A stretch of 64,000 bases of DNA from Candidatus Poribacteria bacterium (GTDB lineage Bacteria > Poribacteria > WGA-4E > WGA-3G). Positions within the stretch are counted from its first letter, which is position 1. Every line of letters begins with the position of its first letter. Location: NCBI GenBank assembly GCA_965198235.1, contig OZ240248.1, positions 3,008,001-3,072,000 of the forward strand. The letters are read 5' to 3'. The notes below the pieces were generated by a model. The model had not been told where the DNA came from, made no database searches, and saw only the letters and a list, made by a program, of their open reading frames with translations. Shown here piece after piece: positions 10,803 through 46,337 of the stretch. The position numbers and the translations under genes are program-made.

Positions 10803-10948
10803 TCAGTCATTCGTTATCAGTTAAAAGAGGACTGTGATAGTCTTGTGAAAAAAGAAATGAAGAAACACCCAAGCAAAAACACACCTCTTGTGACTGAAAA
10901 CTGAAAGGATTTTTTGAAAAAAATCCGCACTGACTGCTGATAACTACT
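10794..10948. repeat. Heptamer-flanked hairpin element (family H) carrying the 21-nt insert
   Basis: tcagt-type heptamers, aagagg...cctctt arms, actgac-type heptamers; relatives at 14176-14230, 25823-25951, 46369-46419, 48320-48411. Confidence 0.65.
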
Positions 10949-11016
10949 CCCTCAGAGATACAAAGGACACGGTTTCCAGTTCTAATACATAGTTGCCCCA
11001 AATGAGGTATGTAGCA

Positions 11017-14000
11017 ATGAAGAAAAAAATGCGTCAGATACTCATCATAACCCTTGCAGTTTGTCTAATTTCTACAACCACCTTTGCCGCCGATTACGTC
11101 CTGATCATTGGCGGGGTTGCCGGTGAAAAATCCTTTTACGATGCATTCTGGGGTGCCACCTCTCGGTTCCATCAGCTGCTCACCAATGAATACGGCTACA
11201 CACCCGACCAGATCACTTTCCTCTTTGAGGACATGGGCGATATAGATCGGGGCGGACAAGGAGAGTTAGAACTGGTTGACACCGAATCAAATCGCGAACA
11301 GGTTTTAGCCGCATTCGATCAACTCGCCAAGACTGTGCAACCCTCAGATCGGTTTCTGCTGTTCATGCTTGGGCACGCCTCCCGTACCGGTAGGGGTAGT
11401 GCGAAGTTTAATCTGCGGGGACGGGATATTACTGAAGCAGAGTATGTAAAGCTCATTAACAGTGTTCCTACCGAGAATCAGATTTTAATCTTCGGTTTCC
11501 CTTATAGTGCGAGGCTTGTGCCGCAACTCAGCGCATCGGGACGAATAATTCTCACCTCAAGTTCACCAAATGAAGGCTACTCGCTACAGGCAGGATTTGG
11601 CGATGTCTTTGTTGGTGCCTTCTCCACCGCAGATAACGATATAAACAGCGATGGGGACATCTCGTTGTTAGAAGCGTTTCTATCGCTACAGACACAGACG
11701 AAGGGGTGGTATGAGAACAACGGAAGTATTCAGTCTGAACATCCCCATCTTGATGATAACGGTGATGGAAATGCCACTCGAAACCTAACGATTGACCCTG
11801 AGGTCCCACGTGTAGAACGGACAGATGATGGCGCACTCGCCGAAAAGACCTTCTTGGGAAAACGTCGTTCCGTCTTACCAAGCACACCACCTCCGCCTGA
11901 ACCTGAAGTTTTCGTCGATGTGTCGCCTACTGAACCTCCCGAAGAGCACAAAAATGGAAACCCAGATGCATCGACTGTCTCTCACAACCCTGAGAATCGT
12001 CGGTCAGCACTGCCTTATGACTATATCAGCGACGCAGACGAGAAAGTAATCCAAGAAGCCATTGATACCGCCCCCGCTCAAAAGGACTATCCAGAGGATG
12101 GTGCTGTCGTTCTTTGGGAAAGCGTTGATGTTGACATCGATGAAAAGAGCCGTTATATCTATTCCACACGACGCGTCGTCAAAATCTTCAATGAAGATGG
12201 CGCGGACCTCGCTGAAGTTAGCATCCCCTATATGCGTGGAAGAGACGATGTCACTATTCATCATGCTCGAACGTTTACCCCTGATGGTAGGATTGTTAAA
12301 CTTAACTTGGGCGAAGTGATCCGGGATGTTCCACCGCCGAGTGCTGTGGACGCAGGCTTATACGTCGACGCACGCTTGATGTACTTCGCACTTCCTGAAA
12401 TTACCGATGGCTGCATCATAGACTACGCCTATTCCACGAACAACCTTGGGCACGTCATGCAAGGCGAATTTTGGCGCAAAGTCTATTTCCAAGGACCACA
12501 ACCCGTGCAACACTATCGGTTCACCGTACACATTCCCAAGAAAAAGCATCTCAATTATCAGATTTCAGGCGTACCGGCTGTAGGCGGCACCTCCGGAATT
12601 CTTAATATGAAAAACGAACCGATCCCCAGTCACAGCGTAGACTTAACCGGAAACCTGCAAGTTAACCCTCCACTCGACTCCGATACAAAACAGCAAAGCA
12701 CGAGTGGAGGGTTAAAACGGACGCAGCAGCCCAGAAGCAATCAATTAAAAACCTTTCTTGATATTGAACCGACAGTTACGGAGAATAACTATATCCGTAC
12801 CTATACCTTTGAAGTGCAAGATGTACCTCCCTTGAAAGAGGAGTACCTGATGCCTGCTCCGCAGGATCTCGCTTATAGCATTAGCATCTCCTCGATTGAT
12901 TCGTGGGATAAATTAGTGACGTGGTATGCGACGCTCATTCGGGAACAGGATACCATTACACCAGAAATTACGAAAAAGACGGAGCAAATCCTCCGCGGTG
13001 CCTGGTCCCGAAAGGAGAAAGTGAAACGGCTTTATGAATACGTCGCGACGAACATCCAGTATCTCGGCTATGAACTCGGAATTTGGGCGATTAAGCCTTA
13101 TCCAGCGGACTTCGTTCTGAAAATAGGTAAAGGGGATTGTAAGGACAAAACGACACTCCTCTCCACGATGCTTTCATCTGCAGGTATTAATTCCTATCCT
13201 GTTCTCATTTCTGCTGGCGATACGCGCGGTGTTAACGCCCACTTTCCAGATGGCGGTTCGGAAGTCGAGGCTGTCCCTTCACTCGCCTATTTCAATCACA
13301 TGATTCTTGCTGTTGACGGCGGCAAAGATGATGAATTCATCTGGCTCGATCCGACAGCAGAGACGTGTGCCTTTGGTGATTTCCCTGCCGGCGACCAAGA
13401 CAGATGGACGCTTATCATCAACCCGCGGTTTCTGACAGAAGATAAAGCATCTGTGGTAGAGGGTTCGGATGATGCAGCATCGGTGGATAGTATGGAAAAT
13501 AGGCTCTATCTCTTTAGGAGAAGTCCTTCCTTAGATGCAACATCAAATCTGAAACGGGTTCACACCCGCGTAGAGGTGAAGAGAGATATGAGCGTCTCTG
13601 TTCGCCAAGAATTGACGGTCACTGGGATCTTCAACATGAAACTTCGGAGTCAACTTTCACACCTTCAAACCTCTGAAGAGAAAGCGGAGTTCTTCCACAA
13701 AGCTTTGGAATTAGACGAACGCGCCAAGGTAACGGATGTTAAAGTCTCTGGACTTTCAAAGCTGGAAGGCGAATTGAAGGTCGAACTCACGTGGACATGT
13801 AAGGAGTATTTGTACGCTATCGGCAGTCAATTTGTCCTTGAATTGCCAATCGTCAAGCACCCCTATGCGGAGTTATTGAGCGAGGAACGCCGGATGTATC
13901 CTGCTGTCATTGGCAAGGCATTATCGCTTGAAGACAAAATCAGTGTCAGCACGGAGGCTCCCTTTCGGATTGATACCGTTCCTGAGGAGCGGACGCTGCA

Positions 14001-14175
14001 GACCGAGGTCGCGGAAATTCAGATCCGCTATGCGAAATCCAAGCGCAAAGCCGAGATGCATCAAACTATCCGTTTCCTAACACCGAGGGTCACACCGAAT
14101 AACATTTACCATCTCAAAGATGTCGTCAGAATCGCCTCAAACCGAGGACCGAAACGATTCATATTGACGCAGTAG
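11017..14175 (+). CDS. Secreted multidomain protein: caspase/C13-like N-terminus + DUF3857 + transglutaminase-like domain
   Basis: Signal peptide; FLLFMLGH; ARTFTPDGR...GCIIDYAY (DUF3857); GDCKDKTTLL...FNHMI...WLDPT catalytic triad. Confidence 0.8.
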   Translation: MKKKMRQILIITLAVCLISTTTFAADYVLIIGGVAGEKSFYDAFWGATSRFHQLLTNEYGYTPDQITFLFEDMGDIDRGGQGELELVDTESNREQVLAAFDQLAKTVQPSDRFLLFMLGHASRTGRGSAKFNLRGRDITEAEYVKLINSVPTENQILIFGFPYSARLVPQLSASGRIILTSSSPNEGYSLQAGFGDVFVGAFSTADNDINSDGDISLLEAFLSLQTQTKGWYENNGSIQSEHPHLDDNGDGNATRNLTIDPEVPRVERTDDGALAEKTFLGKRRSVLPSTPPPPEPEVFVDVSPTEPPEEHKNGNPDASTVSHNPENRRSALPYDYISDADEKVIQEAIDTAPAQKDYPEDGAVVLWESVDVDIDEKSRYIYSTRRVVKIFNEDGADLAEVSIPYMRGRDDVTIHHARTFTPDGRIVKLNLGEVIRDVPPPSAVDAGLYVDARLMYFALPEITDGCIIDYAYSTNNLGHVMQGEFWRKVYFQGPQPVQHYRFTVHIPKKKHLNYQISGVPAVGGTSGILNMKNEPIPSHSVDLTGNLQVNPPLDSDTKQQSTSGGLKRTQQPRSNQLKTFLDIEPTVTENNYIRTYTFEVQDVPPLKEEYLMPAPQDLAYSISISSIDSWDKLVTWYATLIREQDTITPEITKKTEQILRGAWSRKEKVKRLYEYVATNIQYLGYELGIWAIKPYPADFVLKIGKGDCKDKTTLLSTMLSSAGINSYPVLISAGDTRGVNAHFPDGGSEVEAVPSLAYFNHMILAVDGGKDDEFIWLDPTAETCAFGDFPAGDQDRWTLIINPRFLTEDKASVVEGSDDAASVDSMENRLYLFRRSPSLDATSNLKRVHTRVEVKRDMSVSVRQELTVTGIFNMKLRSQLSHLQTSEEKAEFFHKALELDERAKVTDVKVSGLSKLEGELKVELTWTCKEYLYAIGSQFVLELPIVKHPYAELLSEERRMYPAVIGKALSLEDKISVSTEAPFRIDTVPEERTLQTEVAEIQIRYAKSKRKAEMHQTIRFLTPRVTPNNIYHLKDVVRIASNRGPKRFILTQ

Positions 14176-14389
14176 CCGTCGGCTTTCGGCTATCAGCCAT
14201 CAGTTGTTGACTGCTGATGGGTTGACTGATGGTGTTCATGTCTCTGAGATGTAACCTACTTATTTTCAAGATTTACCGCGCAGATCCGCAAACCCGATTG
14301 AAACTGACCGAGAACCTGCCCGAAACATTGTCCCGCAAGCCTCTATAGGCTTGCGCAAGGAGGGCAGTCCAGGAGGCCATAATTAAAAA

Positions 14390-16299: not shown

Positions 16300-17400
16300 A
16301 ACTTATGACCGCCATACACGGTAGGTGCGGTTTCCTAACCGCAAAAATCCTCCAAACATTTTAGACACCCTGCTGGCGAGGTTTGATGAAGATTAAGAAT
16401 TATTTAATGTGGTAATGTAGAGCGTCCATTGTCTGAACTGTGATTTTTGTGATTATGGGATTTCTGTGATAAGAGACGCTTGTGGATTGGAAAGTGTCCT
16501 TTACAGAATTACCGAAATATTTATTTAACCTTCATCAACCGTACTGGGTTCCTTCTAACCACTCTACAGATACACTGCTGGCGAGGTTTCCTATAGGAAA
16601 TCCGCAGAAATCCGCAGAAATCCGCAGGGAAATACGCAGGGAAACACCCTATCAAAAACCCCAAGCAAAGACCCCAAGCAAAAACCCCTCGTCTTTTCTT
16701 TTTTTAGGACTTACGCACTTCCTCTTGAAGTCCCCCTGATAAGGGGGATTTAGGGGGTTAAATAACTGAAATACTCTCACTGCGAGGCATTTTTGGGTGA
16801 AATCTATTGCTTCTTTACGCAATTTGCGTAAGTCCTGTTTTTATTTCTTACCAAAACGACACGCTGGACGCACCCGCCTTACGGGACTACAATCACTTTC
16901 CCAACGACCATTGCTAATTGCTGGCGACTGACCACTGATTGCTGACTGCCGATCGCTATTCAATGCGGCGAGTTTCAAAGTATTCAGAGTAAAATCTGAA
17001 AAGTGATGGATTTCAAGTAGGCTGTAAACTTAGACGATTATTGGGTTTTGAAGGGTTTTGATAGAAGGTTTCTGAAATGCTTACTCTGAAATTTCAGAGT
17101 AGACAGAGGAGGTTTCGTAGCGTAAACTTTTAGTTTGCGCACTCGTGGGAAACCCAATCTAAAAGATTATGCTACAAAGGTGGCAACTTAGGTTACTTTA
17201 GTTTTCACGGAGGCTTCACGGAGTTTTTATCGCCGTAGGTGGGCCGTGGGTTCCCAGGAGTCAATATACCCCTTCTCCGTGAAAAAACGAACGTGAAATT
17301 ATATTTAACTTACTGTATTGATGTTTTTAAGACTGGATATTGCTATCCATGCAGTGCAGAATATCGCGACCAGAGGTCGCTCCTACAGCAAAAAACCCTC
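16300..17400. repeat. ~1.1 kb non-coding cluster of REP-like hairpins and MITEs
   Basis: At least 8 distinct palindromic units (16321, 16431, 16577, 16706-16836, 16910-16960, 17082-17101, 17117-17175, 17202-17285, 17365-17388). Confidence 0.8.
16706..16836. mobile_element. 131-bp MITE with 12-bp perfect terminal inverted repeats
   Basis: aggacttacgca (16706-16717) / tgcgtaagtcct (16825-16836), T-rich flanks. Confidence 0.75.
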
Positions 17401-17887: not shown

Positions 17888-18318
17888 ATTTCCCCACGGC
17901 AAATTCTCACATAACATCGGTGTTGTTGGATACCTCTGTTCTTATATACTACCTTGAAGGGATCGAACCTTACAACCTTCTGGCAAAGGAAATATTCCAA
18001 GATATCGTTGATGAAAACATTAGAGGTTTTCTATCGGTAATATCGATAACTGAATTTGTAGCGAAACCACTTGGATCTGAAAAAGTAATAGACGTTGAAG
18101 GTTTTAAGCAGTTTCTCGCCTCACTACCAATTCAGGTGCTTGAAATTAACCATGAGATAGCAGAACGAGCGGGTAAACTCCGTTCGCAATATCCAAGTAT
18201 TCCAACACCAGATGCTTTAATTGTTGCGACCGCATTGGAGAATGATTGCGATATATTTGTCACGAACGACAAACGCCTAAAAAAGCTAGTGTTGTGTCAA
18301 CCTTCTGTTGATGGATAG
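17869..18318 (+). CDS. VapC-like PIN-domain toxin, 3' end cut by IS630
   Basis: LLDTSVLIY, SVISITE, PDALIVATA, FVTNDKRL; last ~9 codons derive from the IS. Confidence 0.85.
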   Translation: MGSRILDFPTANSHITSVLLDTSVLIYYLEGIEPYNLLAKEIFQDIVDENIRGFLSVISITEFVAKPLGSEKVIDVEGFKQFLASLPIQVLEINHEIAERAGKLRSQYPSIPTPDALIVATALENDCDIFVTNDKRLKKLVLCQPSVDG

Positions 18319-19525
18319 AGTTTCTTGAGTTTGACACGTGCGTCGTCGGTAGTAAACTGCCACTTTACAGTAGCACATTGTTCATTTCTTCGGCTTTGCC
18401 AGGCCTGAATCTCGTGCTTGAGGGTCTGTTGGTCGGCGATCCGCCTTGAAAGACATTGCCGAGATAGCACGGAAAGTTCAATCTCAGCCATGTTCAGCCA
18501 ACTGCCATGCTTCGGGGTATAGTGAAACTCAATCTTTTCAGCAATACGCCTGGCTTGATGTGCTTGAAACGCTTTATACAACGAAGCCGGCTTATGAGTA
18601 TTGAGATTGTCGCAAACCAGCAGGATCTTCTCGGCATCCGGGAAATGAACATCTACCAAGTCTCGACAGATGTGAGCAAAATCAAGGCTTGTTCGTCTAT
18701 CAGTGACTTCAACATGCCGAAATCCGTGAAGGGGTGCGAAAATCATGAACAGATTGCTGACGCCATTGCGCTGGTATTCAGAATCATATCGACGCGGAGC
18801 ACCCGCAATGACCGGCAGAGGCTGCCGAGTTTCTTGGATGTGTTGTTTACTCGTTTCATCAACACAAACCAAAGGATTCACACGCTCTTTGGGGCACTGG
18901 TAGATTTCTAAGACATCTTCCATCGCAGCGACGAAATCCGCCGAGGCTTCGGGGGGAATACACCCTTGCTGCTTTAGCCAAGGTCTCAGTTCGTTTTTTT
19001 TAGAACCTGTCGTATCGTTTCATGAGAAATACTTGAAAAATGGTTGAGTTCTACCATTTTCTCTGCTAACAGGCGAAGCGTCCATCTTGAGAAACCCTCC
19101 GGGGCTTCTGAACAGGCTAAAGCGATCAGATGCGCCTCTTTTTCGCCATCAAACTTTTGCCATCTTGATGCCTCGCAACGCTTCTTAGGAGTCAGGGTGG
19201 CTCTGAGACCCTCAAGCACAAAGGCTTTACGGACTCTCTGAATCGTAGGGATTGAGACTTCAACGGCTTCTTGTATCTGCTCATCTGAGTAGGCGGGGCC
19301 AAACTCACCCGCGTCTGCTTTCAGTAAGATTCTCGCACGCGTGAGTTTGCGTGCCGATTCTCTGCCTGAAGATATCAAATCAATGAGATAATCTCGTTGA
19401 CACTCATCAAGTAGGACTGCGTATCGTTTCGCTGGCATCATAGACTCCAAGTTATAGGATTGATTTTCTTAAGTCTAAGAATACCATCTTTCAGATTAAC
19501 TATCAAGATAAACTTGACAAAGCAC
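18289..19525 (-). mobile_element. IS630-family insertion sequence
   Basis: TIRs gtgttgtgtcaa / ttgacaaagcac, TA (CTAG context) at both ends, two-ORF transposase. Confidence 0.9.
18297..19450 (-). CDS. IS630 transposase (HTH ORF 18986-19450 + DDE ORF) joined by a -1 shift at an A8 run
   Basis: RARILLKAD, RWTLRLLA; the shifted frame KKNELRPW...FVAAMEDVL leads to VCVDE, CDNLNTH, YTPKHGSWLNMAEIE. Confidence 0.9.
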
Positions 19526-20016
19526 TAGATAGGTTCTGGGAGATTTACAACACAGGACTTACCCGTATCATGGGCGGCAGAGGATTAATCGAACAGCGTC
19601 TCAGTGAAGTTTTCCTCGAAAATCTTCAGCCACAGATAAAGACATGGATATCTTATGGCGAGGAAGACTCAGAACAAACCGAAAAGGCTCTTCTCCGATA
19701 CACTCTAAACCATCTCCTTCAACTTCTTGAGGAAGATGGAGAACGTTGTTTTCCCGAAGAATTTTACCTATATCCACCCGTGTCTGAAGGGATCACAACC
19801 GGAAGTATTGTCAAAGAAAAGACGGACGATCAGCCGTTTGTAGTTCTGAGTCCAGCGTGTGATCTTGTTATCAGAAGCAACGGTGAATTCAAAACGGATC
19901 GGATTCTCCTTGCTGGGATCGAAGATGAAAGTGGGGTTGTGAATGCTGCGCTGGATGGCATTAGAAGAAGACAGAGTAAAGAAAATAAACTCCGAGATGT
20001 ATTTAATGACAACTAC
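19526..20016 (+). pseudogene. Internal fragment of a receiver-domain-associated hypothetical protein, truncated at both ends by IS elements
   Basis: Open frame DRFWEIYNTGLTRIMGGRG...VVLSPACDLV begins at the IS630 end and runs into the IS3 remnant. Confidence 0.55.
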
Positions 20017-20825
20017 AGAAACGCCGAATGTGGGCGTTTCAGATTATAGACGTGTGTGATAAAATGCCCGATGCGATCTCTGGCCTCGGTGATGTTTTGA
20101 TAGTCATTGATGTGAACTTCTTCCTCTTTGAGGGTGCGTATGAGTCTTTCAGCATATCCGTTCTCCCAAGGCCGTCCGCGCTGTGCGACGGAAATCTCGA
20201 TGCGATGTTCTTGGAGTGTTGCGATATAAGCCTTTGAAAGAGACTGCACGCCTTGATCGGAATGATGAATCTCAGGGACGCTATGGCAGAATGCCTCTTC
20301 GAGCGGTTTGAGCGTCAGAGATTGGAAACTCAAGTGCTGACTGATCTGCCAAGCTTTGATCATTCGGGTGAAAACATCCATGAGTAGGCAGACATAGATG
20401 AAACGTCCATTGAGACGAACATAGGTAATATCGGCCACCCAGACCTGATCCTGACGAGAGACCTCAACGTTTTCGAGGCGGTTGCTCCAAGGCTTTTCAC
20501 CCTGAAGCGATTTTGTTGTTTGACACGCACGCTTGACAGTGACCAAGAGATTCCTATTTTTCATCAATCGAGCGACGCGTCGCGTCCCAACGGTGTATCC
20601 CATACGCAGTAGCAACTGCGTGATACGCCTATACCCGTATCTCGGATACCGTCCGGCAAGTTTCTCTATTTCCGATCGTAGCAGATCTTCGGACGGATCC
20701 TCTTGGGGGTGATAATAGAAACTGCTGCGGTTGAAACCCAGCGTTTCACAAATCTCTCGCACGGAATACTCCGTGTGCAATGCCGAAATGAGGCTTCGCT
20801 TTTCGGATAAGGTCATTTCAACCAA
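20013..20825 (-). CDS. IS3 OrfB integrase-like (rve) transposase, C-terminus truncated
   Basis: YGYRRI, WVADITYV, HHSDQG, ENGYAERLIRTLKEE, YNLKRPHSA. Confidence 0.85.
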   Translation of the reverse strand: MVEMTLSEKRSLISALHTEYSVREICETLGFNRSSFYYHPQEDPSEDLLRSEIEKLAGRYPRYGYRRITQLLLRMGYTVGTRRVARLMKNRNLLVTVKRACQTTKSLQGEKPWSNRLENVEVSRQDQVWVADITYVRLNGRFIYVCLLMDVFTRMIKAWQISQHLSFQSLTLKPLEEAFCHSVPEIHHSDQGVQSLSKAYIATLQEHRIEISVAQRGRPWENGYAERLIRTLKEEEVHINDYQNITEARDRIGHFITHVYNLKRPHSAFL

Positions 20826-21184
20826 TCCAAGGCTTTTTTTTGGATGTCTAACGCCACCGTTAATCTCCCAACAAGCTGCTCAAGGTGAGCGATACGCTTC
20901 TCGGAAACCTCACTCGACTGCTTATCAGTAGAGTCAAACAGCGTAGACGCATTTTCAACGAGCTGTTGCTTCCACTGTGAGAGTTGATTTTCGTTGAGAT
21001 TAGGTTCTCCGCCGACACACTTCTGCTTGGGAAGTCGCACCGCTGAGGACTTCGAGAACAAGTTCAGCTTTAAACTCAGGGGTGAATTTTCTTCGTTTCG
21101 CCATCGGATAACTCCTTTCTAATGAGATTGTATTGTAGCACAATCTTCCTTTAGGGTGTGGTCTAAAAAACCGATGGCAGTACA
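20017..21184 (-). mobile_element. IS3-family element, 3'-truncated, orfA frameshifted
   Basis: Left end TGTACTGCCATCGGTTTTTTAGACCACAC at 21184; orfA MAKRRKFTPEFKAELVLEVL broken near 21005; no right inverted repeat. Confidence 0.85.
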
Positions 21185-21638
21185 ATTAGTCTTAGATGTG
21201 GTGCATCAGCGCGCAAAAACAGGCTATCAGGTGTTTCCCAAGGGACCAGATCAATTTTTTGCAGGACCGAGGACAACGGATTTCCAAGATAGCAGAATTC
21301 AGGAACAATGTAATAAAGCAGCTCTGGACATTGATGAACAAAGTATTGAGAACGTTAGAACCTTAGTACAAGATTTTTTAAAAGGACATCGTTTCATTGA
21401 CTTACTTCCCGGGCACTTCGCTTTTGGGATTATAAGGCGTTGGATAAACCACACTGTCAATGTGAGGCAAAGAATTTTAGAAGAGGATATCAGAGTGTTC
21501 CTTTCAACAGAAGTATGGCGGTTGGTGAATACTCGGGACCATAACAGTTTGAAAAGGCGGTTACGGCGTGCAGTTCGGGAAGCAGAACAAATACGCCAAG
21601 CAAATAGTAGTCAAGCACAATCAAACCCTGGTTCGTAG
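21185..21638 (+). pseudogene. C-terminal fragment of a hypothetical (DUF4435-like?) protein
   Basis: Open frame beginning at the IS3 end; DLLPGHFAFG motif; family assignment tentative. Confidence 0.4.
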
Positions 21639-21860
21639 TAGTGCGATTCATCGCACGTCAAAGATAAAATGAAACCTGAAACTTCTGACAACCGAAAAAA
21701 TATTACCATTTCCAAATACCTCATCCAAAGCAATTCAATCTTCAGTCTTCCGATTATTTTCCCCAGAGTGTCGCGACCGGGAGGTCGCTCCTACAGAAGA
21801 GGGAGTGTTTTTGCTTGGGTGTTTCCCCAGGATTCGGAGATCCCTTCTACCGAATTTTCC

Positions 21861-25644: not shown

Positions 25645-25822
25645 GTGTTTTTATAATCTTAACCATCAACTCGTGCTTTAACACTTATAACGGAGGCGAG
25701 TTGAGGGTTAAAGTTAACAGTTTTCAGTTTTCAGTTAAGAGATTTTAATGTAACAATTCACCAGTTCTTGGAGTATTCCAAGTTAGGGTAGATTTTTACA
25801 GAATAGTTATCAGAGGGAATGA

Positions 25823-25951
25823 TTATCAGTCATCAGTTATCGGTTATCGGTTAAAGAGGTGCTTTGTTTAACCAAGGGGAAACACCCTATCAAAAACACC
25901 TCTTTTAACTCTCACTGCGAGGCAAACTGACAACTGACAACTGATAACTAT
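25823..25951. repeat. Heptamer-flanked hairpin element (family H) with two nested inserts
   Basis: tatcagt/tatcggt heptamers, aaagaggtg...cacctcttt, actgaca heptamers; inserts at 25877-25897 and 25911-25924. Confidence 0.7.
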
Positions 25952-26881: not shown

Positions 26882-29800
26882 ATGCATCACAAACGCTGCC
26901 CAAATTGTGGGTTCTTGAACCCGCCGTTCAAATTTTGCGGTGAATGTGGAACGTCCCTTGATAGTCCCTCACGTCCACGTCAAATTCCAGCAGTAGATAC
27001 CGCTGTCATGGAACAAGTATTACCGCATGGGGCAGAACGCCGCCAGTTAACCGTCCTTTTCTGTGATATTGTCGACTCCACCGCATTCACCGAAAAATTG
27101 GATCCCGAAGAACTCCGAAATCTTTTAGAGGTATACCGGACATGTATCATGGAGGTGGTTTTAGCACAAAATGGACATATCGCACGTTACTTTGGTGATG
27201 GTATCCTTGTTTATTTCGGTTACCCAATTACACACGAAGACGCAGCACACCGCGCCGTCCGAGCCGCGTTAGGTATTGTTGCCGCTATTGAGACGCTGAA
27301 CCCGTATCTCCAGGCTACCTTTGGCGTGGAAATCAACGTCCGACTTAGTATTGATACAGGGCTTGTTGTCGTCTGGCATATATCGGCGGAAGAATCTCCC
27401 GAGGCAATTGACATCGTCGGTAAAACGCCAAATGTCGCCGCAAGGATGCAAAAGTTAGCAACGCCGAACGGCATTGTCATTGGTGATACGACACATCAAT
27501 TGGTTGATGGCTTTTTTAACACCGCTGCACTCGGTGCTTCCCCACTTCGTGGCATTTCGCAACCCGTGAATGTGTATCAGGTGTCAGGTGAAATTCCTGC
27601 ACAGAGCCGATTGGATATTGCCAGCGAAAGTGGATTAACCCCTTTAATCGGGCGCGAGCGCGAGGTTGAATCACTCAAGCAGAGTTGGGCACAGGTACTG
27701 GCATCTAAAGGGCAAGCACTGCTTATTGAGGGGGAAGCCGGCATCGGAAAGTCAAGGTGTTTGCAACTCATTCAAGAGTCCGTCGAGCATCACCCAGAAG
27801 CAGTGACCATGGAATGCAGATGCTCGCCCTATTACCAGAACAGTCCGCTCTATCCTATTCTTTCGCTGTTCCAAGAGCACGTTGTACAGTTTACCAACAC
27901 CGATACCGCACAGACGCACCTTGACAAACTTGAGAATTTACTGCGCGACTACAACATCCCAACCGTCGGAGGTGATACGGCGTCCCTTTCAAATTCAGAT
28001 CGTGAAGTACAAGAGCATACGCCGGAGACCCTGCCACTTCTTGCCGAATTATTGGAGATACCTTTTGAGGTGCAACAACAAACGGTAACCGGTGTAGGCA
28101 CTCGCCCCTACGGTAGACCCGTTGAACAGGCCACATATCCATCAGGTTGGGGACGCCGACAGCGCCGACAGCAGACTTTGGAAGTGCTTGTTCAAGTCCT
28201 ACTGAAGATGGCTGAACAAAAGCCGATACTTTTTGTCGTTGAAGATCTCCACTGGATTGACCCCTCCAGCATAGAATTTCTTACACTCTTGATTACACGG
28301 ATCGAAAATGCTCGGATTTTCGCAGTTTTGTCCTGTCGCTCTGGTACGCAACCCTATAGACATGTTGAAGAAACACCCAAGCAAAAACCCCCGCTGGGGC
28401 TGAAGGGGGAAGGGCGAGAGATGGGCACGCCACACGGGAGTCGGGAATCGGAGTTCTCTCCTACCGAAATTCTGGATGGAGAAGTGCTGGAGCAACTTCT
28501 ACATCCAGAGTGGGCAAATGCGCTGACGTTGGCAGCACTCACGCCTCCGCAGGTGGAGGAGATGATTCAGCACGTCGCAGGGGACACAGCACTGCCATCG
28601 GAGGTGTTGACACGGATTATCGAAATGACCGAGGGTGTCCCTCTATTTGTTGAGGAACTCACCCAGATGATGCTTGAAAATGTATCGGGGTTACAAACCC
28701 CTCCCACATCTGAGGTGTCCGATGGAACAGATCCACATTCTCAAACAATGGAGGTGCCTGTAACGCTACAGGATTTACTGACAGCGAGATTAGACGAACT
28801 CGGTGCTGCGAAGGAGATCGTCCAACTCGGTGCAACGCTTGGAAGGGAATGGACAGCTGAATTATTACACGAGATTGCTTCTGGGATTGATCTGGAAAAT
28901 CGTCTTTTCACTGATTTCGCCTCGTTGAAAGGTGAATTGAACAAACTCGTAAACGCCTACATCCTCAATCGAAATCAGGTGGCTGACAATCAACTACGCT
29001 ATACGTTCCGACATCCGCTCCTGCGTGAGACAGCGTATCAATCTCTACTCAGGAGTAGGCGACAGCAGTACCATCAACAGATTGCAGAGGTGTTGCAAGG
29101 CGGTGGCGGTTTCCAACCCGAGTTGGTGGCACATCATTACACCGAAGCAGGTCTCCCTGAAAAAGCGATTGACTATTGGCACCGTGCCGGGCAACGTGCA
29201 CTTGAGCGTTCTGCAAACGTGGAGGGTATTCGCCATATCACACAGGGGCTTGCGGCACTTGAGGAACTTTCGACGAACGCCAGCGCACGAGAGTTGGAGG
29301 CTACCGCTCAGCGAGAATTGGAGCTGCAAACGATTCTGGGTAGCGCGCTCATTGCGACAAAAGGGTATGCCGCACCGGAAGTCGAGGTCGCCTATACGCG
29401 GGCGAGGGAGCTACTGGAAACACTTGAAAGTAAGGAACCGACCTTAGAAGGAAACACTGATTCTTCACTTGACCGCATAAAAGATCTCCGCTTTCCGATT
29501 CTGTTTGGATTATGGCTCTCTCATCTCGTGCGTGGACGATTCCTCTCTGCACGTGAACTCGGTGAACAGTGCTTTGTAATTGCCAAGCAAGTCGGAGACC
29601 CAGCTTTCGAGGTAGAGGCGCATCGAGCCCTCGGTGCAACGCTTTACTATTTAAGTGAATTCAAAGATGCATTAGCACATCTTGAGGCAGGAATTGAACT
29701 CTATCAACCGCAGCACCACCCGGTCCCGACATTTCTGCACTTCGTAGCCGATCCCGGGATGACGCTGCTCGCCTATTCTGCACCGCTCTTATGGTGTCTT

Positions 29801-30574
29801 GGCTATCCTCTGCAAGCAGAAGAACGACTTGCCGAAGCCGCAAGGATTGGAAGGGACAGAAGCCATCCTTTTAGTGATGCTGTGTTGCTCCATTTTAAAG
29901 CTGTGCTTTATCAACATCAAGATGAAGTAGAGGAAGTGGAGACCACCGCAACGCAGATGCTACAGATATGTCAAGAGCATGGATTTTCCCTTTGGGAAGC
30001 CGCCGCAACGGTGATGAAGGGTTGGGCACTCACAGAACTGAATCACTCAGAAGAGGGCATCGCGATGATACGTAAGGGCATTGCCGCATGGGAAAAGACA
30101 AGGGCTGAATTGCAACTACCGCTCTTTCTTGCACTGCTTGCACAAGCATATCAACGCGCAGGACAGTATACATTAGCCTTGCAAACACTTGATTCTGCCT
30201 TGAGTGTTGTCACACGAACAGGCGAGCGCGCCTATGATGCGGAACTCACTCGGCGGAAAGGCGAACTCTGTCTCGTCCTCGGTAAAGAGACCGAGATTGT
30301 TGGCGGAAAGGACACGACTTCTACTGTTGTAAAGGCTGAATCCTATTTTCAGGAGGCATTAGCGATAGCGCGCCGCCAAGGCGCAAAATCATGGGAGCTC
30401 CGAGCCGCTCTCAGTTTGAGCGAATTGTGGTGCACGCAAGACCGTTGTCGGGAAGCGTACAATTTGCTGAGACCGATATATCTATGGTTTTCGGAAGGTT
30501 TTGATACGAAAGACCTCCGACAGGCGAAACACCTGTTGAAAAAGCTGCAGGAAGTTAATCATAGCAACAAGTAA
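26882..30574 (+). CDS. Zn-ribbon + class III adenylate/guanylate cyclase + AAA ATPase + TPR protein
   Basis: CPNC/CGEC; ERRQLTVLFCDIVDST, GDGILVYFGYP, PNVAARMQ; GEAGIGKS, VVEDLHWID; WELRAA...WFSEGFDT. Confidence 0.92.
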   Translation: MHHKRCPNCGFLNPPFKFCGECGTSLDSPSRPRQIPAVDTAVMEQVLPHGAERRQLTVLFCDIVDSTAFTEKLDPEELRNLLEVYRTCIMEVVLAQNGHIARYFGDGILVYFGYPITHEDAAHRAVRAALGIVAAIETLNPYLQATFGVEINVRLSIDTGLVVVWHISAEESPEAIDIVGKTPNVAARMQKLATPNGIVIGDTTHQLVDGFFNTAALGASPLRGISQPVNVYQVSGEIPAQSRLDIASESGLTPLIGREREVESLKQSWAQVLASKGQALLIEGEAGIGKSRCLQLIQESVEHHPEAVTMECRCSPYYQNSPLYPILSLFQEHVVQFTNTDTAQTHLDKLENLLRDYNIPTVGGDTASLSNSDREVQEHTPETLPLLAELLEIPFEVQQQTVTGVGTRPYGRPVEQATYPSGWGRRQRRQQTLEVLVQVLLKMAEQKPILFVVEDLHWIDPSSIEFLTLLITRIENARIFAVLSCRSGTQPYRHVEETPKQKPPLGLKGEGREMGTPHGSRESEFSPTEILDGEVLEQLLHPEWANALTLAALTPPQVEEMIQHVAGDTALPSEVLTRIIEMTEGVPLFVEELTQMMLENVSGLQTPPTSEVSDGTDPHSQTMEVPVTLQDLLTARLDELGAAKEIVQLGATLGREWTAELLHEIASGIDLENRLFTDFASLKGELNKLVNAYILNRNQVADNQLRYTFRHPLLRETAYQSLLRSRRQQYHQQIAEVLQGGGGFQPELVAHHYTEAGLPEKAIDYWHRAGQRALERSANVEGIRHITQGLAALEELSTNASARELEATAQRELELQTILGSALIATKGYAAPEVEVAYTRARELLETLESKEPTLEGNTDSSLDRIKDLRFPILFGLWLSHLVRGRFLSARELGEQCFVIAKQVGDPAFEVEAHRALGATLYYLSEFKDALAHLEAGIELYQPQHHPVPTFLHFVADPGMTLLAYSAPLLWCLGYPLQAEERLAEAARIGRDRSHPFSDAVLLHFKAVLYQHQDEVEEVETTATQMLQICQEHGFSLWEAAATVMKGWALTELNHSEEGIAMIRKGIAAWEKTRAELQLPLFLALLAQAYQRAGQYTLALQTLDSALSVVTRTGERAYDAELTRRKGELCLVLGKETEIVGGKDTTSTVVKAESYFQEALAIARRQGAKSWELRAALSLSELWCTQDRCREAYNLLRPIYLWFSEGFDTKDLRQAKHLLKKLQEVNHSNK

Positions 30575-30714
30575 ACAGAATCGTTCAGTTTTCCCGTAGG
30601 AGGATCTCCGAATCCCGACTTCTGATGACTGATAACTGAGAACTATGTAGGAGGGATCTCCGAATCCCGACTCTTGCTGACGGCTAACTGACAACTATTT
30701 GGGAGGGGAACATT

Positions 30715-31625: not shown

Positions 31626-34190
31626 GTGAATTTCAAAGGAGTTTTGATGATGAAAGGTTTTCTAAGGACATTCATATTCCCCTCTCCACCCCGTAGGGGG
31701 TTTTTGCTTGGGTGTTTTTTCAAAATCTCTGTAGAGAGAATAGCATGCTTAATTCTTGTTTCGATCTTTTTCATACTTCTGCACTCAGCGTTCGGGCAAG
31801 AATCCAATGTTGTTGAGGAGGTCCAAAAACAGGCGCAGAGTTGGTGGTCAAACACGCAGGTCTACGTTGGGGTTATCCTTCTCGTCTTTATAATCAGTAG
31901 CGTTGGATATGTAATAAGGCTCTTTAAAAAAGACAAACTTCTTAAGAAGCTTCTGAATAAATACGTCGTTTTTCAGATGAAGGATGGCAGACGTTACCGA
32001 GGCACCATGCGGCTGGAATTCACAGGTATGGAGATTATCTCTGAGGAATCCCGGCAACGCGGACATGCGCCGAGTTATATTTTCACCAATGAAGAACGCG
32101 ATGAGGGAATTGTCGCATACATCCGCTACCTCGATTCGATGAATACGCGTGAACTGAGAGAACGCGCTTGGGAGCTTGAGCGTGTCTATCATCCTCCTGT
32201 CATCTACAAGGTCGGACGGAAAATCCGGAATATGTTCATCGCTCTCAAAGAGGCGTTGAAAGAAGCTATTAGCATGGCATGGAGCAGTTTCACAAGAGGG
32301 GCGAACAGACGCTTAGAGCGGTACCGAGAGGCATATGAAGCTGAAGGCGGCGATCTGGAAAAAAGGTTCGAAAAATTGGAGGATGAATCTGCAGGCTACC
32401 TGGAGCAGGAAAGTTATGAACGTTTAATTGAACGCCTGATTGGAACACGGGTCAAAGTTCGAGTCCGTTTCGGTGAACATACCGCTGAGTACACGGCTAT
32501 CCTCAAGGACTACAATAGTAAACATATTGCGCTCATGAATGTAAAGGATAAGGACAACAACGGCTACGCAGACGAGTGGGAATATGAACATGAATTTAAG
32601 AAGGATCTTGCAAAACTCAACCGTCGTGATGACCGGGGGTTGCGATGTCGTGCGGAAAGCAACACAATCATCTTTGAAAACAATACACCTTATACAATCC
32701 GACTTGGACGCATTCGGTTGACGGAGGACTCACCGAAATGGGAAAAGGATTATAAGTACAAGTACCATATCGGTGCCTTCAGTGTTCAAAGACTTGAGGT
32801 AGAGCCTGTTGTTAAACATAATGTAGAACCTTTCGAGCGCGTTGCCGTTCGAGACACACGCGCCATAAGCAATTACAAAAAAATTTGGTTCAAGTTTCGC
32901 TCTTTCCGCGATGCGGATATCGTTTTCCCACGCCGCTACTGCACAATTGTTGAAAGCGCGGAGAAATACCAGCCTGAACTTTTCAGTCTTACCGGCTTGA
33001 CAGACACTATTTTAGACATGCGTGATGCGGAGGACATCGCTATTACGGACAAAGATGGCAATGCTATTCACGGTATCAACGTTGTTCACGGATATGTGAC
33101 AAATGTCAATGAAGAACGTATTGATTTAAAGGCAATTGATGCGAGTTATAGCCGAAGATGGGACGTTGAAAACGCGTTTCTCCGTTTTGATAATAAACTC
33201 CGCCACGGATTTCCTATCTACAAGCGGCTTCTACCGATAAATCGCGCCCGGATTACAGCGCACGCTTCCCTCGTTGAGCAGATACACAGTAACCCGGTTC
33301 GACATGCGGCGTTAGCGCCGCTTGTTTATCCACAGCCACGTAGCCTAAACGCTGCGGAACAGCGAACACGCAGCCGAAAACGGATGCGGAATCGAATTGT
33401 GAGGGGCATAAATGCTGCAATTTGGAAATCAGGAAACGGGCTCTCCAAAACTCCTGATATAAAACGTTCGGAAGTACAGATCGCGATGCCTCTCAAACTC
33501 ATGGCACTCACTGGAAATACATCCACTGTCGAGTTTCCAGTCCTTGAACGTTTTGAATACGTTCAAGATCACCACATGATTTACAACTCGGTTCAAGATT
33601 TACGGACCGATCGGCTTGCCAAGACTAATATTTTATGGATTGGCAACGGCGAAATTTACAAATCCGGCTATCGATTAAACATAGATGCTGAACATCGAAT
33701 TAAAAACTTCGTCAGCCAAGGGGGAGTCGTCATCGTTTCCGGACAAGATGTCAAAGCCAGTGCCAAACAACGCCGCGGCACAGGGTGGATTCCGGAGCCG
33801 CTCACCGGAATTGAATGTGAAGAGGCTTATGAGCTCTCTCCTACATCACAAGGAAAACGCTCCCGTATTTTCCAACATCCGAATCCACTTAATGGAAATC
33901 ATGCCGATCCAGAGGCGCAGGATCACCCCTTTATTCGACTGGATGATATGTGGTTGGATCCTCTTGGAAAATGGACATCTCTCGCCAAGATTAACACGAC
34001 TGCTGCGGGTTTGCCAAGAAATGGTGAAGATGCCTCCGCGCTGCTACTCCTTCCGTTTCAGAAGGGGTTATACATCGTCACCAGTTTGAAGAATGAGACG
34101 CAGGCGGATGTGCAGGTCAACGATAAAATTATGGAAAACCTGCTCCATTTTTCTGTCAAATGGCTCGACCGGCAACGTAAGAGCGTTTAA
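31626..34190 (+). CDS. Large membrane-anchored hypothetical protein (start uncertain)
   Basis: 854-codon ORF, two N-terminal hydrophobic segments, C-terminal class-I GATase-like segment (IKNFVSQGGVVIVSGQ). Confidence 0.7.
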   Translation: MNFKGVLMMKGFLRTFIFPSPPRRGFLLGCFFKISVERIACLILVSIFFILLHSAFGQESNVVEEVQKQAQSWWSNTQVYVGVILLVFIISSVGYVIRLFKKDKLLKKLLNKYVVFQMKDGRRYRGTMRLEFTGMEIISEESRQRGHAPSYIFTNEERDEGIVAYIRYLDSMNTRELRERAWELERVYHPPVIYKVGRKIRNMFIALKEALKEAISMAWSSFTRGANRRLERYREAYEAEGGDLEKRFEKLEDESAGYLEQESYERLIERLIGTRVKVRVRFGEHTAEYTAILKDYNSKHIALMNVKDKDNNGYADEWEYEHEFKKDLAKLNRRDDRGLRCRAESNTIIFENNTPYTIRLGRIRLTEDSPKWEKDYKYKYHIGAFSVQRLEVEPVVKHNVEPFERVAVRDTRAISNYKKIWFKFRSFRDADIVFPRRYCTIVESAEKYQPELFSLTGLTDTILDMRDAEDIAITDKDGNAIHGINVVHGYVTNVNEERIDLKAIDASYSRRWDVENAFLRFDNKLRHGFPIYKRLLPINRARITAHASLVEQIHSNPVRHAALAPLVYPQPRSLNAAEQRTRSRKRMRNRIVRGINAAIWKSGNGLSKTPDIKRSEVQIAMPLKLMALTGNTSTVEFPVLERFEYVQDHHMIYNSVQDLRTDRLAKTNILWIGNGEIYKSGYRLNIDAEHRIKNFVSQGGVVIVSGQDVKASAKQRRGTGWIPEPLTGIECEEAYELSPTSQGKRSRIFQHPNPLNGNHADPEAQDHPFIRLDDMWLDPLGKWTSLAKINTTAAGLPRNGEDASALLLLPFQKGLYIVTSLKNETQADVQVNDKIMENLLHFSVKWLDRQRKSV

Positions 34191-35383
34191 TTTATCTGTA
34201 GGAGCGAGTGGTTTTCTGCCGCCGATCTGGAACCCAGCAACACATCAGTAAGCTTCTCATCGCCTTCGGTAACAACCAGTGCAACCGCTAAAACGACTAT
34301 CGGAAGGTTCCAGTTATCTGCAAAGCGCGCTAATTTCTGCTCGTCTTTCTGTGTTGTGACAATCAGATCTGCCCCTGCTTCTTGAAAAGCCGTATCTATT
34401 CGCTGTTTATCGGTTTCTGTATAGACATGGTGATCGGGAAATGCCAGCAGTTCTACACTCGCAACGGAGCATCGCATGAGGGTCGCAACAAACGTATCCG
34501 GGTTTCCAATTCCACAAACTGCAAGAATCCGTTTTCCCTTGAGTTCTTTCATATCAGTGGGAATGGCTTTCGGATCTCGGATTTCAGCCGTCGGCAAAGA
34601 AGGTTTCGTGCTAATTGCTGACGGCTGATTGCTGATGGCTAATGGATAGAGATGTGTTGGCTGGTGAATGCTTTCCAAGACCGATGCGTTCGGTGCCAAG
34701 GGTTTCACCAATTTTTTGATATGTGCAGATACGTCAGGTGTGTCTGCATGCGTCAGTAAGATAAGGTCTGCGCGTTGTAGAGCGGCGGGTGGTTCACGTA
34801 GGGTTCCCGCGGGTAGCAATTTCTCTGGACTACCGAAGGGATGTGTTGCCGGGATAGTGAGAATATCGACATCACGCGCAAGCTGCCGATGCTGAAACCC
34901 ATCATCTAAGAGCAAGACATCTACCTTGAAACGTTCAAGCGCAACCTGACCTGCCAGATAGCGACATTTACCTGCGAGAATCGGAACGCTACTGAGGTGT
35001 TTTGCCATCATGTCCGCTTCATCACCGCTTTCTATGGGAGCGGCACACACTTTTTCGCCGTCCGAGACGATGGTCACTTTTTCGCGAGCACGACGTTTAT
35101 ACCCGCGCAGCAGAATAGCGACGCGCATCCCCTCTCTTTGAAGATGTTTCACAATGGTGATAACAGCAGGTGTTTTACCTGTCCCGCCAACAACAATGTT
35201 ACCGACACTGATGACGCGGCATGGCAATCTGCGTGCTTTAAATATCCCGTGTGTATATAAGATATTCCGTAGTTGGACGCTTGCCGTGTAGAACCAACTC
35301 AATGGAATTAATAAAAAGCGTAGAGGGGTGGCGAGAATCCTCTGCTGTAGCGAGGCAAGATCGCGGGAGTGTGTGAGTTTCAT
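34187..35383 (-). CDS. lpxK: Tetraacyldisaccharide 4'-kinase
   Basis: SVGNIVVGGTGKTP, GDEA, LDDGFQH, LLPAGTLRE, GIGNP, FPDHH. Confidence 0.93.
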   Translation of the reverse strand: MKLTHSRDLASLQQRILATPLRFLLIPLSWFYTASVQLRNILYTHGIFKARRLPCRVISVGNIVVGGTGKTPAVITIVKHLQREGMRVAILLRGYKRRAREKVTIVSDGEKVCAAPIESGDEADMMAKHLSSVPILAGKCRYLAGQVALERFKVDVLLLDDGFQHRQLARDVDILTIPATHPFGSPEKLLPAGTLREPPAALQRADLILLTHADTPDVSAHIKKLVKPLAPNASVLESIHQPTHLYPLAISNQPSAISTKPSLPTAEIRDPKAIPTDMKELKGKRILAVCGIGNPDTFVATLMRCSVASVELLAFPDHHVYTETDKQRIDTAFQEAGADLIVTTQKDEQKLARFADNWNLPIVVLAVALVVTEGDEKLTDVLLGSRSAAENHSLLQIN

Positions 35384-38169: not shown

Positions 38170-38338
38170 GTCCCTCCATGCCCATAATCCTGTAAATCCT
38201 GATTCAGACAACTGCTTGTCGATCTCCCCTCCCGATTCCTAACTGCTATTCTGCTGTAGGAGCGAGTGTTTTTGCTTGGGTGTTTCCCCATGCTCGCGAC
38301 TCTTGTTGACTGCTAACGACTGCCCCCAAAGAAATAAA

Positions 38339-43176: not shown

Positions 43177-43199
43177 ATAACGTGTCGTAATCATCGAAA

Positions 43200-44738: not shown

Positions 44739-44750
44739 AATTTCCTTGCT

Positions 44751-45464: not shown

Positions 45465-45486
45465 GATTTTTTTGGGATGTTCGTCT

Positions 45487-46173
45487 TTAGATGTAGCGGG
45501 TCGGATCGGGAATCCCTGCCTCTTTAAAGCCTCTCTTTCGGAGCAGGCAACTATCACATCCGCCACATGCTTTGCCTTCAGTATCTGGATCGTAGCAACT
45601 TAGAGTGAGGCTGTAATCGACACCGAGTGCTGTGCCAATTTGAATAATCTCCGCCTTCGTTTTATCAATAAGTGGGGCGCGAATTCTCAATTTCGTTTTA
45701 CCTTCAACGCCGGCTTGTGTCGCGAGGTTTGCCATTGTTTGATAGGCATCTATATATTCCGGGCGACAATCCGGATAGCCACTGTAATCAATAGCGTTGG
45801 CTCCGATAAAAATGGTATCAGAGGTGAGAACTTCAGCATAAGCGAGCGCGTAGGAGAGAAAAATTGTGTTTCGGGCGGGGACGTAGGTTATCGGGATGCC
45901 ATTTCCCATTTCTGTCCCAGATCTGTCCTTTGGAACTTCGATATTTGCCGTCAATGCTGATGATCCGAAGGTCCGTAGGTCAATGTCAACGACTATGTGT
46001 TGTCTGGTGCCTAATGCCTTTGCGATGTTTTTGGCACACTGTAGTTCCATTGTGTGTCGCTGACCGTACCGAAAACTCATGCAATATGTATCGTAATCTT
46101 CATCGCGGGCGATAGCGAGCGTTGTTGTTGAGTCTAAGCCGCCACTCAATAGGACGACTGCTTTTTTACGCAA
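45487..46173 (-). CDS. queC: 7-cyano-7-deazaguanine synthase
   Basis: [28 protein letters not shown]...CGGCDSC. Confidence 0.95.
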
Positions 46174-46245
46174 TTCTTTTCCTTTTTTAATTGTTCCTTG
46201 CGGTTAGATATCGTGGTTGAAACTTTGGCGTTTTTTTCTTAAATC

Positions 46246-46337
46246 TGAAGAAATCCGCAGAAATCCACAGAAACACCCTATCAAAAACCCCAAGCAATAC
46301 GCAGAAATACCCAAGCAAAAACACCCCAAGCAAAAAC
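46246..46337 (+). repeat. Stuttered array of the GAAATCCGCA / GAAACACCCAAGCAAAAAC words
   Basis: Same modules as 16596-16685 in a different order and number. Confidence 0.8.

Follow-up and report, generated by a model that had tools for sequence, protein, structure and literature searches.

A very small repeat element, probably copied from genomic donors, beside C-rich hairpin arms in one genus of Candidatus Poribacteria

How does one word of about 20 nucleotides come to lie, in the same form, within hairpins and other repeats that are unrelated to one another in sequence? The question is raised by a 64,000-nt stretch of a Candidatus Poribacteria genome (contig OZ240248.1; C1:3008001-3072000 of the source genome G000, which comprises 5.17 Mb in two contigs at 48% G+C), referred to here as the window, in which the sequence AAACACCC(AAG/TAT)CAAAAAC, hereafter the word, has nine matches at ≤1 mismatch (10863, 16642, 21807 on the minus strand, 25880, 28371, 31700 and 38268 both on the minus strand, 46271 and 46305), against 0.03 expected and with none of 100 shuffles reaching nine. 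A first-pass annotation, made from the letters of the window, had placed the word at these sites in the same contexts and had proposed a targeted micro-insertion process. That proposal is supported by empty and filled states of the same host, both at paralogous sites, where 34 filled arrays have an empty paralogue within G000, and at orthologous sites among relatives; in agreement with the annotation, neither terminal inverted repeats (TIRs) nor a target site duplication (TSD) were found at the empty/filled pairs. The word probably forms the core of a repeat element of very small size that belongs to a single Poribacteria genus, resembling the small dispersed repeats (SDRs) of cyanobacteria and spread by DNA-templated copy-in from a genomic donor.

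G000 contains 151 exact copies of the word, 265 at ≤1 mismatch and 398 at ≤2 mismatches, which group into 212 arrays; 94 of these have the simple 19-nt form and the longest extends over ~190 nt. The taxon sample comprised 24 Candidatus Poribacteria genomes of the same genus, with 74-90% identity between orthologous genes of the compared species, and, for comparison, 16 that represent three further families of the order. The exact word was present in 24/24 genomes of the genus and in 0/16 outside it, and at ≤2 mismatches there were 14-284 copies per genus genome compared with 0-1 in all 16 sister-family genomes, a background equal to that of a reversed-pattern control (0-1 matches at ≤2 mismatches). 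A scan of sequence records for the exact word, covering 185,579 species' genomes and 596 billion bases, returned nearly only metagenome-assembled genomes (MAGs) of Candidatus Poribacteria; two MAGs among the matches showed synteny with G000 at 82-85% identity. A single match in Pyrinomonadales (L123) was discarded, as the matching sequence has no other similarity to G000 and fits the ~4 chance 19-mer matches calculated for a search of this size. A cyanobacterial origin of G000, which its heptamer repeats and SDR-like appearance might suggest, was rejected, given that HIP1 is found only 139 times and that the named matches are MAGs of Poribacteria. The word is thus confined to one genus of Candidatus Poribacteria, which are sponge symbionts.

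Alignment of filled arrays with their empty paralogues showed that insertion replaces 1-4 central bases of the target, and that the two junctions differ in character (hyphens mark junctions here and below). The right (3') junction is exact in every family, the element ending in ..CAAAAAC and the host following directly, whereas the left (5') junction is formed by a variable purine filler (GAAG, TGAAG, TGGGG, TAGGGG, TTAAGGG, AAAG or GG). The element consists of an 18-nt core with a purine-rich 5' filler of 1-7 nt, 19-25 nt overall. Its insertion does not add a fixed 21 nt: a simple copy lengthens the host by a net 20-23 nt, a compound array by as much as ~190 nt. Because insert length varies in this way, the earlier suggestion that a length of 21 keeps reading frames open is not a rule, although in-frame genic copies do exist. 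The cleanest host is MITE-A, an ~85-nt miniature transposable element with inverted repeats (MITE), for which 20 empty copies (..ccatc-A-actcgtg..) and 14 filled copies were found, together with 2 that could not be assigned; the filled copies are in six different states, all of which start with GAAG.

The bases directly 3' of the element follow a simple target rule, A or C, then C, C/T and C/T, and these target bases are identical to those with which a further repeat unit, (A)CCC, would begin. Among arrays ending in CAAAAAC, 185/194 are followed by at least 2 bases matching (A)CCC, compared with 11% at random positions, and the rule holds in 87 of 92 distinct right flanks, which extends genome-wide the earlier observation that copies lie immediately 5' of a C-rich arm. 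The accompanying claim that each copy sits in or against a palindrome needs correction, as perfect stems enclose no more than about one copy in four, namely 54/212 for stems of at least 5 bp (6.8% of controls) and 29/212 for stems of at least 7 bp (0.4% of controls). Many others stand at a small hairpin's 5' foot, CCCCGCTGGGG being one example. The perfect-stem count replaced a folding of the flanks with a neutral loop, in which control positions were paired as often as copies, and the left filler was not seen to covary with the AAG/TAT variants, as would have been a sign of a hairpin within the element. The hosts include repetitive extragenic palindromes (REPs) of the type that flanks REP-associated tyrosine transposases (RAYTs), GTAG-type REPs, MITEs whose ends are TIR-like, hairpins between heptamer tandem repeats, and unique sequence. 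The host families are mutually unrelated in sequence; at least 92 distinct right-flank contexts were counted, and in 39 arrays the 40-nt flanks of either side are both single-copy.

Presence and absence at orthologous loci were examined against relatives of G000, the closest being G018 (876 kb compared, flanks ~90% identical), and both empty and filled states were found. Gains specific to G018 and to G014 occur with the host present in both genomes compared; in one of the G014 gains, tatatc-cg-cctgcg has become tatatc-TAGGGG+word-cctgcg. Of 30 arrays in G018, 17 could be mapped to G000: 3 are filled in both genomes, 4-5 have a host that is present but empty in G000, and ~9 differ by the whole host element. 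In the other direction 24 of 219 G000 arrays could be mapped to the G018 stretch. Both genomes are filled at 4 of these, so that G000 has about one copy in six in common with its closest relative; at 2-3 the G018 host is empty, and at ~17 the difference is one of the entire element. When 52 sites from other Poribacteria loci were mapped to G000, the word was found in 12 of the intervals (4-5 of them in the same host) and was lacking in 40, and clean cases in which the host is present in both states were obtained at L061 and L112. These comparisons indicate high turnover, with gains in single lineages being common. Some orthologous copies are identical though their flanks differ. Old copies decay by substitutions and, in one case, by a 3-nt deletion, and decayed copies were recorded in G024 at the orthologue of 31700, in G024, G006, G012 and G045 at L174, and in G018 at three loci. 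The G004 orthologue of the G014 site (G014+39689) has a CCTGCG..TGCAGG loop containing remnants of a reverse array around further inserted sequence, a pattern suggestive of a single loop having been hit repeatedly.

In compound arrays AAAT(C/A)CGCAG units precede the core on its left and CCC(AAG/TAT)CAAAAAC units follow it on its right, and junctions such as CCCAAGCAA-TACGCAG-AAATACCCAAGCAAAAAC amount to a 21-nt insertion within an older copy. Landing of the word in itself is expected, since its own CCC satisfies the target rule; after such self-insertion the old AAA and the new filler would stand to the left, with the old CCC..AAAAC remaining to the right. Forward copies inside reverse copies (gtttttgctt-AAG+word-ggtgtttc) occur at a minimum of 5 loci. 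A 59-nt composite, GG-AAATCCGCAG-AGG-AAACACCCTATCAAAAAC followed by two CCCAAGCAAAAAC units, is present at 6-7 G000 loci in differing contexts, in two cases within reading frames that stay open, and its 44-nt core occurs in 6 places in G000 and in 0/30 other genomes of the genus. At all five composite loci that were compared, at least one relative has a simpler form of the word at the same place (Table 1). A recently arisen composite has therefore been copied onto older copies, which identifies the donor as a genomic copy and not a fixed external master.

We favour, as the probable reading, a short repeat element. It is written directly 5' of (A)C(C/T)(C/T), which in most cases opens a stem arm of a RAYT-type REP or a MITE hairpin. 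It gains copies in three ways: some ride on moving MITEs and REPs, some are newly inserted into hairpins that were empty, and some land in older copies of the word or overwrite them. The copy-in step would be DNA-templated, by template switching or short-patch conversion, with priming at the G-rich 3' end that faces the C-rich arm and a microhomology of 2-5 nt to the next unit, (A)CCC. Such a step fits the exact microhomology junction, the ragged far side, the loss of few target bases and the genomic donor, and it would not need reverse transcription. A sequence-specific factor or requirement would in addition restrict which copies propagate: old copies decay and few are shared, yet the same consensus is found throughout the genus, which argues for propagation that depends on the sequence of the word.

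Several observations weigh against this reading. The target rule is not absolute, as copies nested in reverse copies have GGTG on their right and not (A)CYC (5/194 arrays). Among 110 compound arrays the number of left fillers correlates with the number of extra cores (r=0.70); the equality predicted by nesting is found in 39 only, with 57 off by one and 14 by more, while shuffled pairings are equal in 27.5 arrays on average and in 42 at most, so that either slippage or partial events also act or the nesting model is incomplete. The template-switching step is inferred from the anatomy of the junctions, and passive microhomology would not keep an 18-mer constant across species, which points to a missing part of the mechanism. 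No enzyme or trans factor for copying of the word was identified among the candidates considered. Gain or loss at single polymorphic sites was called by parsimony and not on a rooted tree. The word occurs on both strands of G000 (110 forward, 135 reverse) with no regional pattern seen, and the GC skew of this genome is too weak to place the origin or terminus and hence to serve as the basis for a test of replication-strand bias.

The first-pass annotation had put forward templated synthesis by a reverse transcriptase or a primase-polymerase. This part of the proposal was not borne out: RVT_1 had no matches in G000 and was not found in 10/24 genomes of the genus, and Prim-Pol was not found in G000. 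The RVT_1-negative genomes include G004, G006, G007, G014, G018 and G024, which are assembled in 1-2 contigs each and contain 19-103 exact words, and two of them, G018 and G014, show lineage-specific gains. RAYT homologues are present in 18/24 genus genomes and in 9/16 outside the genus; at E≤1e-20 no homologue was found in 6/24 genomes of the genus, one of them G024 with its 103 exact words. Judged by these distributions, no candidate enzyme tracks the word. A more novel reading is a reverse transcriptase-independent, sequence-specific "DNA-writing" activity, in which an unrecognised enzyme or ribonucleoprotein installs and re-installs the ~20-nt word beside C-rich stem arms; we raise this tentatively, as a doubtful but worthwhile possibility. 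If it were true, the word would together with the Nostoc SDRs define a micro-mobile class far below the size of any transposon, phyletic profiling should be able to locate the gene responsible, given the genus-sharp spread (24/24 against 0/16) and the wide range of copy number (14-284) over dozens of genomes, and a dedicated enzyme would be one that places a short fixed DNA sequence beside a short target motif.

Two further explanations invoke known kinds of enzyme. A dedicated, telomerase-like polymerase copying a short separate template onto the G-rich 3' end of a nicked or broken hairpin would give an exact junction on the priming side, a ragged far junction and tandem 13-mers, and the data have features of this kind: the word with its flank equals 1.6 copies of a 13-mer (AAACACCCAAGCA-AAACACC..), resembling a template with an alignment region, the right-hand arrays have a period of 13-14 nt, the junction adjoins C-rich sequence, and hence a G-rich primer, in 95% of arrays, and the family consensus is constant across the genus. 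We nevertheless regard such a polymerase as unlikely, because RVT_1 was not found in G000 or in 10/24 genus genomes, G018 and G014 with their lineage-specific gains among them, because Prim-Pol was not found in G000, because the spread of the G000 composite between loci makes the template a genomic array, and because a conserved master locus was not found in a search that was not exhaustive. A Y1 (HUH) nuclease, either RAYT or the TnpA of IS200/IS605, might instead cut single-stranded DNA at the foot or loop of a hairpin and paste the word as a by-product of REP processing. G000 does encode six Y1 proteins, and the REP types that flank its RAYTs host the word at the boundary of head and hairpin (filled at 28354 and 31689, empty at 4245 and 5949). 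This explanation too is unlikely, given that RAYT homologues occur in word-free genomes and, at E≤1e-20, were not found in some that carry the word, that a ragged 5' junction is unlike site-specific cleavage, that an element of ~20 nt cannot hold the two subterminal hairpins needed by the IS200/IS605 family, and that array orientation relative to neighbouring genes is unbiased (57 vs 49).

The word could instead be a functional module, for example the binding site of a conserved host protein, that is kept by selection in each hairpin and passed on between repeats by ordinary recombination only, which would account for the common consensus in all 24 genus genomes, for the identical orthologous copies within differing flanks and for the mainly intergenic location of arrays, 39/210 lying within stop-to-stop open reading frames (ORFs) of at least 200 aa although such ORFs make up 82% of the genome. 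However, old copies decay freely, 4/24 mapped copies are common to the closest relative, copies occur within coding sequence, array orientation relative to genes is unbiased, and the window has no Rfam match at gathering threshold; on this balance selection for function is improbable. Least probable, and already contradicted, is a single longer ancestral repeat in which the word was a fixed internal segment and from which the empty copies derive by deletion, or, in a variant, an origin of the word as an artefact of assembly. Many copies do travel with whole MITEs, as the mapped arrays of G000 and G018 indicate, but the diversity of right flanks, the arrays with single-copy flanks and the unrelated host families are not those of one repeat; empty hairpins with family-specific centres of 1-4 nt form the majority of MITE-A copies, and filled states are lineage-specific among close relatives. 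The artefact variant is rejected since the word is present in many separately assembled MAGs and since one contig from an independent Illumina RNA library covers 28287-29157 without a gap, including the copy at 28371. Many repeat-induced joints of contigs at the word were treated as effects of the assembly graph and were excluded as evidence of mobility.

Table 1 Word copies and empty sites in the window, and the composite loci compared with relatives (hyphens mark junctions)
Feature	Position or locus	Strand	Host, context or state in relatives
Simple copy, filler GAAG + 18-nt word	10859..10880	+	inside 174-nt composite hairpin/heptamer element 10780-10953
Compound array: four left units (G)GAAAT(C/A)CGCAG, core word (TAT form), two right units CCCAAGCAAA(G/A)AC	16596..16685	+
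Empty REP-like hairpin (CTGGCGAGGTTTCCAAACCTCGTC)	50221..50244	+	paralogue of host at 16578
Simple copy, TGGGG + word	21807..21829	-	in element GGGATCTCCGAATCC-..-ACTCCCTC
Simple copy, GGGG + TAT-form word	25876..25897	+	hairpin TTAAAGAGGT..ACCTCTTTTAA between heptamer tandem repeats
Empty target, MITE-A copy caact-cg-cctccg	25755..25871	+	G018 orthologue filled
Simple copy, TGAAG + word	28366..28388	+	5' foot of REP hairpin CCCCGCTGGGG, inside 1230-aa ORF 26882-30574
Simple copy, TGAAA + word	31700..31722	-	5' foot of REP hairpin CCCCTACGGGG
Simple copy, TGGGG + word	38268..38290	-	loop of REP TCGCGAGC..ACTCGCTCCTACAG
Compound array with nested junction ..CCCAAGCAA-TACGCAG-AAATACCCAAGCAAAAAC..	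46247..46337	+	inside 231-nt MITE 46190-46420
Empty REP (CCCCGTAGGGG TG AAATCTCTGTAGA)	4245..4270	+	paralogue of host at 31689
Empty REP (CTATAGACATTG CCCCCCGCTGGGG)	5949..5973	+	paralogue of host at 28354; head CTATAGACAT common to RAYT-flanking REPs
Composite locus	L174		G018, G024, G006, G012, G045: simple, partly mutated copies; G004, G010, G013, G001: none
Composite locus	L175		G018: decayed array
Composite locus	L176		G018: decayed simple copy; four others: none
Composite locus	L177		G018: decayed simple copy
Composite locus	L178		G024: simple copy; G004: different array; G006, G014, G018: empty

The individual sites of the window (Table 1) were compared with syntenic DNA from four relatives (G018, G014, G024 and G004). 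The 174-nt element around the copy at 10859 is missing at the orthologous site of all four relatives, where 0-2 nt are found instead, and the whole 231-nt MITE at 46190-46420 is missing in G018 and G024. The compound array at 16596 lies in the loop of a REP-like hairpin (CTGGCGAGG...CCTCG), and the orthologous hairpin of G018 and G024 contains the simple word only. At 25880 the G018 sequence is identical, G014 has the host without the word, and the host is missing in G024 and G004; orthologues of the neighbouring MITE-A copy, at ~25811, are filled in G018 (caact-TGAAG+word-actccg) and empty in G014 (caact-tg-actccg). The site at 31700 is empty in G004 (gattt-ca-cccctacgggg) and filled in G024, where substitutions have followed. 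Empty paralogues of the host at 21807 read gaatcc-cg-actccctc, and for the REP type of 38268 orthologous empty and filled states were found at other loci. Of the four empty/filled pairs that had been listed in the first-pass annotation, 4245/31689, 5949/28354 and 50221/16578 proved clean, while 17365/38255 is approximate only, the two being related REPs with different stems (GCGACC/GGTCGC and GCGAG./ACTCGC); a better empty partner for the REP type of 38255 lies outside the window, near C1:4376712.

Among the repeats of the window, the regions 25820-25950, 34610-34643 and 30596-30707 contain heptamer-type tandem repeats (cagttat/ctgacaa) that bracket hairpins in inverted orientation, together with a 52-nt tandem of REP-like units. 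The heptamer setting is like the short tandemly repeated repetitive (STRR) context of cyanobacteria in which SDRs have reportedly been observed. The window also contains a multicopy element of ~1.17 kb at ~20007-21187, with an ORF at 20013-20825 on the minus strand, which is probably an insertion sequence (IS); other copies in G000 are at C1:1909974, 1287788 and 3764774 (94-99% identical), and there are many in most genomes of the genus. The segment at ~18286-19531 has a second copy at C1:2443383-2444628 with 90% identity, and similar copies in G046 and G021.

The six Y1 genes of G000 comprise three IS605-type TnpA+TnpB units and three solitary RAYTs. The unit at L164 (C1:118338-121691), with a 139-aa TnpA and a 370-aa TnpB-like ORF, is one of the former, three such Y1 copies being present in the genome. 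The RAYT genes at L167, L168 and L169 (C1:3853757, 606918 and 1898775) each lie between inverted REPs consisting of the head CTATAGACAT and a hairpin such as CACCCCTACGGGGTG, and are classic RAYT/REPIN systems; a description of RAYT/REPIN in the phylum Poribacteria was not found in a literature search. The hosts at 4245, 5949, 28354 and 31689 belong to these REP types, the place of the word in them being exactly between head and hairpin, and REPs like the host of 31700 also bracket the RAYT gene in L169. None of the REPs around the three RAYTs themselves contains the word.

Copies within genes are illustrated by the ORF at 26882-30574, which encodes 1230 aa with adenylate/guanylate cyclase, AAA_16 and TPR domains. 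REP-derived sequence and the word (28340-28480) stand there in place of an AAA-TPR linker of ~30 residues and leave the frame open, and four relatives have a different linker that is conserved among them. The copy at L174 encodes part of an acidic linker in another gene and has been kept, with mutations, in five species. In coding-looking DNA at C1:988498, a 25-nt stretch of G018 (L081; GG+word+ACCGC) corresponds to 10 nt in G000, a difference of +15 that would keep the frame; an obvious hairpin host is absent.

Several known classes of sequence share single features with the element. Its relation to REP/REPIN-RAYT systems is one of guest to host, in that many hosts are REPs of RAYT-flanking types. 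The bacterial interspersed mosaic elements (BIMEs) of E. coli combine REPs with short extra motifs. REP families with variable and sometimes long loops are treated in the relevant part of Di Nocera et al. 2013 (PMC3733652). The word differs from a REP in being non-palindromic, in residing in many unrelated hairpins and in non-repeat DNA, in a distribution that does not follow RAYT, and in its absence from the RAYT-flanking REPs. Insertion sequences that target REPs encode a transposase and measure about a kilobase or more. Targeting of REP structures by IS1397 and IS621 is noted in the part of Delihas 2011 (PMC3184786) that concerns them. The word resembles these elements in that insertion is aimed at REPs, and differs in its ~20 nt, its lack of coding capacity and its lack of defined ends. 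Its length of 19-25 nt, the lack of TIR and TSD and the replacement of 1-4 target bases set it apart from MITEs as well, and it does not conform to the palindrome-associated elements (PATEs) of the IS200/IS605 family, as empty sites are without filler, the left flank varies (C-A-, C-AA-, C-CG-) and there is no room for two hairpins. A retroelement would have a reverse transcriptase in every active genome, and RVT_1 was not found in G000, nor in 10/24 genus genomes, G018 and G014 included. Tandem slippage by itself does not accommodate 92 right-flank contexts and 39 arrays with single-copy flanks, although slippage may still shape the arrays. Palindromic elements of 100-150 bp lying in frame within the genes of Rickettsia were reportedly described by Ogata and colleagues in 2000; the likeness is the in-frame, repeat-derived sequence in genes, and the difference is that in-frame copies of the word are a minority. 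Repair insertions made at palindromes by template switching or microhomology copy arbitrary nearby sequence. The word shares with them one microhomology junction, one ragged junction, the loss of few target bases and occasional reverse-complement copies, and is distinguished by the copying of the same 18-mer hundreds of times and by its constancy across a genus.

The closest parallel is found in cyanobacteria, where Elhai, Kato, Cousins, Lindblad and Costa (2008, Genome Res 18:1484) reportedly described SDR1-8, the small dispersed repeats that Nostoc punctiforme and its relatives carry. They are reported to be ~21-27 nt long, dispersed and highly repeated, to lie in mini-transposons and heptamer repeats, to be self-nested, and to differ between genomes as empty and filled sites; TIR, TSD and a known enzyme are reportedly lacking. 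To our knowledge, the mechanism of such ~20-nt self-inserting elements, described once in 2008 in one cyanobacterial family, has never been solved. SDRs receive a brief mention in the relevant passages of PMC3116915, PMC5861425 and PMC2884548, and no work on DNA repeats in Poribacteria was found in a literature search. Measured against this description, the word is of the same size class (~20-27 nt) and high copy number, resides in REPs, MITEs and heptamer-flanked hairpins, nests in itself, both in reverse (at least 5 loci) and as the composite over simple copies (5/5), and is polymorphic for empty and filled states between related genomes. The behaviour is therefore not undescribed, as had been thought at first; the precedent is close in behaviour, and the word is likened to SDRs by description, not by sequence. 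It differs in occurring in Candidatus Poribacteria and not in cyanobacteria of the Nostocaceae type and, in features not known to have been defined for SDRs, in its exact 3' junction at (A)CYY, its ragged filler, the replacement of 1-4 nt and the overwriting of older copies by a lineage-specific composite. Among known elements that look mobile the word ranks with the smallest, and it is the first of this kind seen outside cyanobacteria; it also shows the remodelling of repeat loops, REPs and protein linkers in uncultivated sponge symbionts. With a second, unrelated lineage that has SDR-like behaviour, sharp junction rules, a genomic donor, no need of reverse transcription and dozens of related genomes, the matter becomes a comparative problem, namely which gene tracks the word.

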